Below are positions 21,986 through 23,616 of a stretch of 64,000 nucleotides of DNA, piece by piece; the first letter of the stretch is position 1, and each line of letters opens with the position of its first letter. The notes under the pieces are model-generated. The model saw only the letters and a list, made by a program, of their open reading frames with translations. It was not told where the DNA came from and did not search any database. The DNA is from Gammaproteobacteria bacterium (GTDB taxonomy: Bacteria; Pseudomonadota; Gammaproteobacteria; Eutrophobiales; Eutrophobiaceae): contig OZ220696.1 in assembly GCA_965116495.1 (NCBI GenBank), positions 480,001 through 544,000 of the forward strand. The letters run 5' to 3'. Position numbers and translations under genes: made by a program.

Positions 21986-22037
21986 GTTATGCTTATATCA
22001 TACATATGCCCTTTTTGCAAGTTCAATATCGGTCTAG

Positions 22038-22151
22038 CCGCAGATGCGGCTGAATCCGGATGTTAAAGAAATTTTCGGCTTCCGCTACGAGGATTTTGAA
22101 CTGGTGGGGTACCAGGCGCACCCGTCAATCCCGGCGCCTATCGCGGTATGA
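22038..22151 (+). pseudogene. thyA: Orphan 3' end of thymidylate synthase (copy 1, 37 aa)
   Basis: [37 protein letters not shown] is the canonical ThyA C-terminus. It begins directly after a CTAG. Confidence 0.88.
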
Positions 22152-22168
22152 CCCAGGGAAGGAGTTTC

Positions 22169-22462
22169 CTAAGCAGCTATAGTCCTCAGTACAAACTCAG
22201 GGTCAGCCTGGATCAGTCGCAGGTAATTTGAGGCAGCCGCATCGGGGGAGCGTTTACCCTGTTCCCATCCTTTCAGTGTGTCCAGGCTCAGGTGGTAAGA
22301 ACGCGCAAACACGGCTTGCGACATGTTTACCTTTCGCCGTATCGCCTTGATCGTCGCAGGCGTGATCACAAAATATGCAGTTCCAGGCGTTATATTGCCT
22401 TTGGCAACGTCAACTGCTTCTTTCAGGTTGGCTTCGAGTTCGTTGAATAATTTGTCGTCCAC
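22169..22462 (-). CDS. HTH XRE-family antitoxin (HigA2/NadS-like)
   Basis: IKAIRRKVNMSQAVFA...TLKGWEQGKRSPD. Lies downstream of a RelE-like toxin. Confidence 0.88.
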   Translation of the reverse strand: MDDKLFNELEANLKEAVDVAKGNITPGTAYFVITPATIKAIRRKVNMSQAVFARSYHLSLDTLKGWEQGKRSPDAAASNYLRLIQADPEFVLRTIAA

Positions 22463-22471
22463 GTTCAGCCC

Positions 22472-22804
22472 CTAACCGAATACTTCAATCATCTGATCAA
22501 CATACTTTTTCAATCGTGCTTTCTGGCCGGATGTCAGATTTTCCTGCCTGGCCTTGGCATAGATCAACAATAACAATATTGGTTTTTGTGCATTGTGGTA
22601 GTAATAAATTACCCGGGTACTACCGCTTTTGCCTTGGCCCGGTCGAGCAATGCGTATTTTACGCAGACCGCCGGTACCTTGGATGAGTTTCCCCGCCTTG
22701 GGTCGCCTGGCCAGAAGCTCAAGCATGGCTTCAAATCCTTCATTGCCCAGTAATCCACGCGCCTTGGTTTCAAACGTACCGATTGGAACGAGTGTTTGCA
22801 TCAT
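22472..22804 (-). CDS. RelE/HigB2-family toxin
   Basis: P.AG.LIQGTGGLRKIR.ARPG.GKSG..RVIYY...LLLIYAK..QENLT. Confidence 0.9.
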   Translation of the reverse strand: MMQTLVPIGTFETKARGLLGNEGFEAMLELLARRPKAGKLIQGTGGLRKIRIARPGQGKSGSTRVIYYYHNAQKPILLLLIYAKARQENLTSGQKARLKKYVDQMIEVFG

Positions 22805-22855
22805 GCATCCTTTATCCTGTAAACCCTATTGTGGTTCATTGAACCCTTAAAGTCA

Positions 22856-22885
22856 ACAATCTATCCCATAACAATCTATCCCATA
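22856..22885. repeat. 15-bp tandem duplication ACAATCTATCCCATA x2
   Basis: Copies at 22856-22870 and 22871-22885. Confidence 0.9.
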
Positions 22886-23062
22886 ACTGAACCACCTTTC
22901 AGATATTATATTTGACCTCACGTCGGTACGGCCACACCCACTGCAAGAACTAAAGCTAATGTCTAACCTGTTACCCAAAACACCCAGTTTCCGATTGGTT
23001 TGTAGTACTTAAATTAAAGGCTCCACTTAACTTAAATGCCATAGGTTCAACTTAAGAAATAT

Positions 23063-23084
23063 GGGGTCGGACCACTCCGGCCCG
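23063..23084. repeat. Short REP-like hairpin, consensus GGGGTCGGAC-CA-GTCCGACCCC (copy 1)
   Basis: GGGGTCGGAC CA CTCCGGCCCG. A second degenerate copy is at 23595-23616. Confidence 0.65.
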
Positions 23085-23085
23085 C

Positions 23086-23125
23086 CCAGGCGCACCCGTC
23101 CATACCAGCGCTCATCGCGGTTTGA
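23086..23125 (+). pseudogene. thyA: Orphan 3' end of thymidylate synthase (copy 2, 12 aa)
   Basis: [12 protein letters not shown], 34/40 nt identical to 22112-22151. Confidence 0.8.
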
Positions 23126-23186
23126 TCAGCGAATAGTGTCGTTCGACTCAGACTGATTTTATTTTCTGAAACGCAGACCTGCAGCT

Positions 23187-23435
23187 TCAGGGCAACTCAT
23201 CGCCTGAGCGTGGAGGTTCTCCGCCGGATCGAAACAGAAGTGAGCGAAAAGCGTTCATATCGGCCTCATTCATCTTATTCAAAAAAAATTGCTCGGTTTC
23301 CAGCACCGAAATCTTTTCAGCTACCGCAATGGTAATAAACTGGTTCATGCTGGATCCGTCCCGTTTGGCCACCTTGGCGACCTTGTCTTTCAAAGACTTC
23401 GGCAGTCTCAATGGATAGGTTGATAAATCAGCCAT
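23187..23435 (-). CDS. RHH/HicB-like antitoxin of a PIN-family TA pair
   Basis: YPLRLPKSLKD....AKRDG.SMNQFIT.AVAEK, C-terminal P..GDELP. Confidence 0.85.
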   Translation of the reverse strand: MADLSTYPLRLPKSLKDKVAKVAKRDGSSMNQFITIAVAEKISVLETEQFFLNKMNEADMNAFRSLLFRSGGEPPRSGDELP

Positions 23436-23580
23436 TTCTCACCCTCCTCAAGGCTTCCGCAGGGTTAATTACTGCAATATTAAACATATCCGACACTTTG
23501 GCATAATCACGCAGGTTAAACGTCACGATGGCGTCTGCCTGACCGTTAACAGCGACCTCAAGCACCATTTTTCCCGCATC
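23428..23580 (-). pseudogene. 3' remnant of a PIN-domain toxin
   Basis: DAGKMVLEVAVNGQADAIVTFNLRDY...INPAEALRRVRNG*. The 5' two-thirds are absent. Confidence 0.85.
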
Positions 23581-23594
23581 TGTAATAGGAATAC

Positions 23595-23616
23595 GGGGTT
23601 TGACCAGTCCGACCCT
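23595..23616. repeat. Short REP-like hairpin (copy 2)
   Basis: GGGGTTTGAC CA GTCCGACCCT. Confidence 0.65.

Follow-up and report, generated by a model that had tools for sequence, protein, structure and literature searches.

Strand-biased circularizing elements (SEs) have the central 6 bp of their target next to motif C, and the 6 bp next to motif C' are foreign (PMC10214605). One of them, the bcp-inserted SE-6283, brings along a homolog of that gene (PMC9345347), and Tn552-II carries a gene resembling its target that has been proposed as a rescue (PMC12486829); carrying a replacement for the interrupted gene is thus a known strategy. GInts, marked by the module ginABCD, include two from P. 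aeruginosa that sit at the end of a duplicated nrdA (PMC5385486). The new comparative data point to an SE-like element that targets thyA as the source of an unusual gene row in the stretch studied here, a 64,000-nt window (the whole of the DNA analysed; G000:480001-544000) of the single-contig, 4.34-Mb genome G000 of a gammaproteobacterium of the Eutrophobiaceae. In this window, five toxin-antitoxin (TA) modules, all on the minus strand, fill the ~3 kb between the stop codons of a PQQ dehydrogenase gene (21391) and a tannase gene (24484), in the order BrnA/BrnT, helix-turn-helix (HTH)/RelE, Arc/PIN, orphan HigA and Phd-HTH. Three of the five toxin genes are broken or missing, and two thyA 3' ends lie among the modules. 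With a probability of about 0.68, the row is what erosion has left of a cargo array, brought by an SE-like tyrosine-recombinase element that targets thyA and that would have used a secondary site between the two flanking genes, hereafter the PQQ-tannase site.

The element itself is visible in two relatives, G001 and G015. In both, the host thyA ends at nt 522, followed by 6 bp and one element end, and the far element end directly precedes nt 523 of the host thyA, the start of its 273-nt tail. The element carries a complete 298-aa thyA (43% to host ThyA), which in G001 is preceded by ~6 kb including type I restriction-modification (R-M) genes, together with four further genes of 891/913, 687/690, 176 and 412/421 aa; the order 891-687-176-412 is the same in G001, G015 and the metagenome loci holding all four. 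Of the four proteins, the tyrosine recombinase of 412 aa conserves R, K, H-x-x-R and Y, a profile of the 687-aa protein (37 homologs) conserves R-K-H-R-H-Y, and the 891-aa protein lacks the full catalytic set (its AlphaFold model, built from no alignment, reached a pLDDT of 36 and was not used). The two element ends match at 8 of their first 9 nt in G015 and G001. The right-end pattern has 10 matches in 5 of 25 genomes, all directly 5' of a tail beginning at nt 523, and the reversed-pattern control has none. The 6-bp spacer is of the target type at nine of these ten right ends and carries a single change at the remaining one, while non-target spacers stand at the left ends in G001, G015, L101, L105 and L108; in four near-identical elements (L132-L135), furthermore, the spacers differ. 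The foreign left spacer of G015 (L035:290-301) encodes S-W, as does the element's own thyA at the target position, and may be the record of an earlier insertion into an element-type thyA. This match led us to abandon the notion that thyA would be killed by excision.

Searches detected the large recombinase in 2 of 26 relatives, and a class-wide search gave one weak match in 400 scored genomes, so the element is rare in that sample. The large recombinase also appears in 35 clusters at 90% identity, and 456 representatives (50% identity) score E <1e-30, most of them lacking known context; many may target other genes. Among 80 metagenome loci, 29 include thyA sequence and 17 have the host thyA broken at codon 174|175 (~13 distinct elements), and in two further loci the far end is followed by the tail, in one case with folA. 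Many of the remaining loci are short contigs or distant relatives, and L122 and L125 have long flanks with no thyA in them. Other layouts occur in L116, L127, L144 and L154: the replacement thyA sits after the recombinase genes at L144:2661-9978, and at L154:848-3166 host thyA is missing, and directly after lgt comes a duplicated copy of the start of an element-type thyA. A gap of ~2.6 kb separates the small gene from the ordinary recombinase in L103, L104, L106, L107, L109-L115, L118, L122, L142 and L166, and in L114 and L122 it holds a small open reading frame and a gene of 737-743 aa. All checked catalytic residues are kept in the 16 distinct element-borne ThyA proteins that were aligned, which all lie to the same side of one branch (88/92, unstarred) and are presumably active. 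In 13 of the 16, the target codons differ from P-F, a change that could possibly reflect self-avoidance, with drift as an alternative reading.

Judged from its genes and junctions, the thyA element works like an SE. It shares with SEs the set made up of an ordinary and a large catalytic tyrosine recombinase, a non-catalytic relative and a small protein, as well as short imperfect inverted ends, a 6-bp footprint and a fixed target; its junctions follow the C/C' spacer rule, and, like SEs, it uses few selected sites, with the same codon boundary in the two genomes and in 17 metagenome loci. The 687-aa profile hits the SE IntB of pN069_1 at E 4e-14, against a 184-aa Tfp fragment the 891-aa protein reaches no more than E 0.014, and against Srap the 176-aa protein reaches E 0.025. 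Unlike in SEs, however, the target is an essential gene that is cut mid-gene, the SE order intA-tfp-intB-srap is permuted so that the ordinary recombinase comes last, the non-catalytic protein measures 650-1150 aa, and the inverted ends are shorter than the 13-19 bp reported. The hosts, to judge by neighbouring genes, also look broader than Gammaproteobacteria, and stacked tail-headed arrays are absent from the SE literature examined. Given the permuted order and the E values of the Tfp and Srap matches, membership in the SE family is not established. SEs have been reported as undetected in Alphaproteobacteria (PMC10214605); at L191:4253-9417, however, the Novosphingobium plasmid pLA1 has four genes arranged as in SEs, and among reference sequences the three large proteins of this module match the thyA-element family best (E 1e-23 to 1e-54).

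Other described systems overlap with the element in part. GInts likewise combine a four-gene module with site-specific insertion, defence and addiction cargo, and 6-nt staggered cuts with non-identical spacers (PMC5385486). The 687-aa and 891-aa profiles, however, find no match to GinB or GinC of E. coli IAI1 (E >0.7; one reference GInt), and the match to GinA is no better than that to XerC/D. An identity with the gamma-mobile-trio (GMT) was also considered and set aside, as no NCBIfam match of that name was found. The Tn554 family brings its spacer from the previous site and carries a homolog of the disrupted target, but it has three genes instead of four, is staphylococcal and uses a yolD-like target (PMC12486829). 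Literature searches turned up no paper on a thyA-targeting element, with subscription papers and bioRxiv supplements outside their scope; thyA goes unmentioned in the text of PMC10214605 and its 7 readable supplements, the supplement of PMC5385486, 10.1101/2024.06.12.598671 and PMC8138268.

The spacer between thyA and folA is a hotspot for cargo. Across 23 same-genus genomes including G000, this spacer is shorter than 100 bp in six, measures 263 bp in one and holds inserts of 0.9-50 kb in 12; three others have inserts on broken contigs, and one lacks a thyA tail match. Extra thyA tails occur in the thyA-folA region of 11 of 22 relatives, those of G016 on a contig unlinked to its thyA. For each of the five TA modules in the window, relatives hold homologs of 82-97% in their thyA-folA spacers. 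Specifically, an HTH antitoxin homolog lies 3' of the intact thyA in G018, positions 22037-22512 are colinear at 87.6% with the end of that thyA and the HTH antitoxin gene, and positions 22048-22864 are colinear at 88% with the thyA end, antitoxin and toxin of G012. The same modules also stand at 14 unrelated loci, only one of which has a thyA fragment, which speaks against thyA as their only route. The cargo, furthermore, extends to type III R-M systems, SIR2-TPR genes, DUF488 pairs (PADLOC PDC-M19), RTX proteins and metabolic operons. A 12-14-kb metabolic block is common to the thyA spacers of G001 and G002 (L040:495-14731; L043:3935-16128) and the PQQ-tannase site of G014 (L078:8857-19783 and L079). 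It is bounded by thyA fragments and encodes, according to labels from translations, a TetR regulator, a transporter, a Rieske-like protein, a TonB receptor and dehydrogenases. Another shared cassette, with a DUF2335 gene, is headed in G019 (L038:6613-7256) and G001 (L040:15013-15388) by a thyA tail and then an internally deleted folA, the head of which is joined to its final 70-80 nt.

The junction that recurs in these arrays is an element end followed by a thyA tail. G015 holds thyA 1-522, the element core, cargo and three such junctions with an RTX gene and a TA pair between them, while G022 has an intact thyA, cargo and two junctions, with no recombinase. The TA unit common to both genomes is 98.2% identical, and its flanking tails show 19 and 27 differences over 273 nt, mostly at third positions; the tails therefore turn over independently of the cargo. 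A composite of complete element and stack is present in G015 and G001. Short tails arise at least partly by internal deletion, with nt 576 joined to nt 755 directly behind an intact end in G016 and ~nt 640 joined to nt 755 in G018 and G014, and those of the window are likely eroded remnants of 273-nt tails. By analogy, the stacks would fit the accretion and cis-mobilisation reviewed for CIMEs, recombinase-less remnants that are stacked at one site and carried by a complete element (PMC5704250). Like a CIME, the array in G000 has lost its recombinase genes; of the expected att ends, a 9-nt right-end remnant persists there, and the left junction is deleted; sister genomes have a thyA tail at this place and not the element's left end. 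Known CIMEs, in contrast, occupy gene ends with short att repeats (PMC5704250), whereas here the repeat unit includes a third of an essential coding sequence and a whole stack occurs at a second locus.

The two thyA tails of the window are foreign to its genome. The 40 nt that they share differ at six positions, comprising four synonymous codons and one P/L codon with two changes, and five of the six changes fall at third positions (binomial p 0.018). Tail 1, which begins directly after CTAG, differs from the G000 thyA at 22 of 114 nt, 17 of the 22 at third positions (p 3e-5), and from the intact thyA of G008 at 11 positions, all of them third. The alleles of six relatives are closer to it (11-14 differences) than the resident gene is (22). 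Its 5' boundary recurs in G022 (1 difference) and G008 (18 differences, 15 third-position), and tails that start at nt 755-757, like tail 2, recur in G002, G012, G014, G016 and G018. Pairwise counts are used here because the 273-nt tail tree is poorly resolved (5 of 25 branches starred). By these counts, both window tails are pieces of other strains' functional thyA alleles. Two similar copies lying 974 nt apart could also have come from a single local duplication of the thyA end followed by neutral decay, but the accumulation of differences at third positions relative to the genome's own thyA and the greater nearness of foreign alleles to tail 1 refute this origin, to which we assign next to no probability.

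An earlier reading made from the DNA alone, the sequence-only reading, had recognised much of this. It had described a unit, present twice, in which an antitoxin-toxin pair faces a thyA tail, and had taken the tails for different alleles shaped by selection, and both points are borne out by the layout, the third-position bias and the nearness of tail 1 to foreign alleles. Both convergent TA pairs (HTH with RelE; Arc-type with PIN) are indeed present, but the second is no complete cassette, its PIN toxin being truncated to residues 96-142. The decayed folA start at 23636 and the 9-nt remnant of an element end at 24458 had escaped that reading. The interleaving of cassettes with thyA tails downstream of thyA, which it had proposed to look for, is found in the relatives checked; the cassettes are not specific to TA modules, given the mixed cargo and the 14 unrelated loci. 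It had also seen no complete thyA or integrase nearby. The intact G000 thyA, in the order lgt-thyA-(ribbon antitoxin, PIN toxin)-folA-apaH, lies at G000:3597226-3598020, 3.09 Mb from the window tails, whereas a tyrosine-integrase gene does stand 13 kb away at 8245-9072; it falls outside the recombinase family of the thyA element. This gene (275 aa as called) adjoins a likely DNA methylase/restriction-enzyme pair at window 5966-9072, the edge of a separate island. None of the four element genes was found in G000, so that "integrase-free" describes the array in its present state, but a recombinase element exists and explains the long tails. Thymidylate synthase as a landing pad, likewise, was partly right: the site is a fixed mid-gene point, nt 522|523, and the short tails of the window are likely eroded. 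The piece was, finally, supposed to have been moved off thyA later; insertion at a secondary site through the element's own recombination, instead of a later rearrangement, now appears the likely route.

The evidence for such a secondary insertion comes from sister genomes. Variable arrays occupy the PQQ-tannase junction in G000, G014, G015, G016 and G022, and further arrangements are visible as joints in public runs, including a form in run X8, from another study, with 162 other letters at the left junction. The arrays of G014, G015 and G022 open with a 12-nt arm resembling thyA 511-522, after which thyA follows from nt 523; this part is deleted in G000. On the right, the G014 array closes with a whole degenerate element end that reaches 23.4 bits, where the best of 8.7 million G000 positions reaches -0.1. 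Of the element end, the final 9 nt survive at the orthologous place in G000, although this 9-mer alone is not rare (7 copies in G000). In line with the SE footprint rule, the 6 bp beside the G014 end differ from those of thyA, and thyA's own 6 bp stand on the opposite side. Since both junctions coincide with the element crossover, we infer site-specific entry of a tail-headed block at this secondary site.

In the sequence of events that we favour, the element would insert between thyA codons 174 and 175, a step visible in genomes, so that the left side reads thyA 1-522, 6-bp spacer and element end, the right side reads the other end and the host's 273-nt tail, and a complete thyA of the element's own lies beside the four recombinase-module genes. 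Repeated gain and loss would then stack units of tail 523-795, cargo and element end between thyA and folA, a structure that is itself seen, with tails from different hosts. Subsequently, the stack would move as a block, most simply when a distal end is used to circularise a complete element, the core of which is lost later, or when an end-plus-tail junction recombines directly; at thyA, this would result in an intact gene with a swapped tail. The block would have entered the look-alike site in the window's ancestor, as the junctions in sister genomes suggest, and microhomology deletions and homologous exchange, observable for relatives' tails, would have trimmed the tails and broken three of the five toxins.

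Several observations weigh against this account. No empty PQQ-tannase site was found in 24 genomes, the fragments of G007 or eight contig runs, where contigs can show presence and not absence, and the left arm might hence simply be decayed thyA 505-522; the predicted empty site, moreover, resembles the target only weakly, with 9,682 of 8.7 million positions scoring as well. G000 retains only 9 nt of the end, which G015, G016 and G022 have lost, neither window tail starts at nt 523 or has an element end before it, and no circle or element activity was observed. A mosaic test of intact thyA genes at nt 522 shows no overall 5'/3' difference (third-position divergence 0.35 vs 0.33), and only one of the ten closest intact-thyA pairs (G000/G022) breaks near nt 522 (uncorrected p 0.003). 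The genome also suggests that a general homology-driven insertion route operates in this lineage: other G000 inserts, several with TA genes, lie between imperfect copies, 60-270 nt long, of the ends of neighbouring genes, and no adjacent recombinase was called. Eight of these, at G000:239360-241916, 657993-678207, 1217848-1224630, 1240077-1245501, 2227110-2230252, 2416610-2418233, 4279793-4283798 and 4335573-4336984, have direct, imperfect repeats of 68-265 nt (77-99%), and some hold AAA/abortive-infection-like genes.

Homologous recombination might hence have built and moved the array on its own. Ends of thyA or folA, or TA modules held in common, would have anchored foreign DNA that entered by Campbell-type or homology-facilitated illegitimate recombination (HFIR), and the element would only have supplied some of the tails and ends as passengers. 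HFIR has reportedly been described for competent bacteria. Variable tail starts (nt 240, 644, 682, 715, 733 and 755-757), the occurrence of folA heads, a G005 tail 98.8% identical to its own thyA, and at least eight other G000 inserts with imperfect gene-end repeats all agree with such a route, as do the alleles at the brnT-tail junction, where G000 and G008 differ at 18 positions, 15 of them third (p 2e-5). It leaves unexplained, however, why the PQQ-tannase arrays start within ~12 nt of the crossover and finish exactly at an element end followed by non-thyA sequence, and why 10 of 10 intact ends meet nt 523, and we regard it as unlikely to be the whole answer. The gene-end-flanked inserts and the different brnT-tail alleles in G000 and G008 nonetheless indicate that homologous recombination also shuffles the arrays. 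It may explain the folA head and the tail alleles, probably contributed to the window array, and very likely works alongside the element.

The sequence-only reading had also noted CTAG and two hairpins at the edges of the units, and no role for them was shown. Both hairpins are weak (z -1.4 and -0.4 vs shuffles) and belong to a genome-wide family resembling repetitive extragenic palindromes (REP-like; one 11-mer in 18 copies, 11 of them intergenic); CTAG as an insertion-sequence target is not supported, no footprint of that kind having been seen. A scenario in which the TA cassettes owe their mobility to the REP-like GGGTCGGACC hairpins together with a REP-associated transposase, and the thyA tails are chance neighbours, could draw on the hairpins that flank unit 2 and follow several tail stop codons and on a Y1 transposase in G000 that is flanked by a related REP family. 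Yet the hairpins fold no better than shuffles, occur genome-wide while missing at most tail junctions, and differ in family from the REPs around the transposase, which makes this scenario very improbable. The Y1 transposase gene lies between its REP copies at G000:400800-406200, and its 3' end occurs in two additional copies close by; elsewhere, G000:1008451-1011900 carries three adjacent tyrosine recombinases, which we take to be an RIT-like trio.

The features of the locus are listed below. Gene calls come from a simple in-house caller, so genes may be missed or mis-started. Contigs of run X2 tile 19300-26300 with zero mismatches; as X2 is possibly the source sample, this speaks against misassembly but is not independent. 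Further TA genes, named from translations, lie at window 44417-45072, 52208-52513 and 53898-54221 (a VapBC-like pair, a HigA-like and an AbrB-like gene).

Table 1. Features of the PQQ-tannase site in window coordinates.
Feature	Position	Strand	Remarks
PQQ dehydrogenase gene, left flank	19445..21391	+	PF01011; flank orthologous in G014, G015, G016, G022
Eroded left junction	21392..21424	.	G000 lacks ~160 nt present in sister genomes
BrnA antitoxin	21400..21723	-	PF14384; 92% homolog directly 3' of intact thyA in G008
BrnT toxin	21707..21985	-	PF04365
thyA tail 1 (nt 682-795), foreign allele	22038..22151	+	Last 37 codons and stop; PF00303 E 1e-6
HTH (HigA/NadS-like) antitoxin	22169..22462	-	Homolog 3' of intact thyA in G018
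RelE-family toxin	22472..22804	-	PF06296
REP-like hairpin	23064..23083	+	Also after thyA tail stop codons in G022, G015; copies elsewhere
thyA tail 2 (nt 756-795)	23086..23125	+	12 codons and stop; identical copy in G016
Arc/ribbon-type antitoxin	23187..23435	-	PF03869
PIN toxin remnant, residues 96-142 only	23428..23571	-	Full gene 142 aa, intact in G022
Second REP-like element, upstream edge of Arc-PIN module	23597..23616	-	
Decayed folA (dihydrofolate reductase) head, first 14 codons	23636..23677	+	81-86% to relatives' folA starts
HigA antitoxin, no toxin	23711..24004	-	TIGR02607; 97% homolog directly 3' of intact thyA in G005
Phd-HTH antitoxin	24030..24422	-	92-95% homologs in thyA-folA spacers of G005, G018
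RelE toxin remnant (partner of Phd-HTH antitoxin), last 11 codons	24419..24460	-	
Element-end remnant, last 9 nt (GTCACTAAA), and 6-bp spacer; array right junction	24458..24472	+	
Tannase-family esterase gene, right flank	24484..26085	-	PF07519; flank orthologous in G014, G015, G016, G022

A more far-reaching picture, which we hold as tentative and rather doubtful, is that of an undescribed, widespread SE-like family that holds an essential gene hostage. Such elements would cut thyA at a conserved catalytic-site codon and leave the host dependent on an element thyA whose own target has drifted out of reach; their recombinases would also use end-plus-tail junctions, giving rise to an integron-like array with a third of thyA as the cassette joint, the units of which swap the host tail and can be seeded at look-alike sites, this window being one case.

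Taken together, these findings show how insertion into the middle of an essential gene is open to a mobile element that brings a full replacement, and they identify a set of recombinases whose single target is conserved among distant bacteria. The system thereby offers a testable model for questions that concern SEs and GInts alike, such as the choice of target, the empty site and the gain of cargo. The window itself is a decayed relic whose value lies in its secondary-site junctions, and the element accounts for a hotspot of defence and TA genes next to thyA and folA, the genes of thymidylate and folate metabolism.

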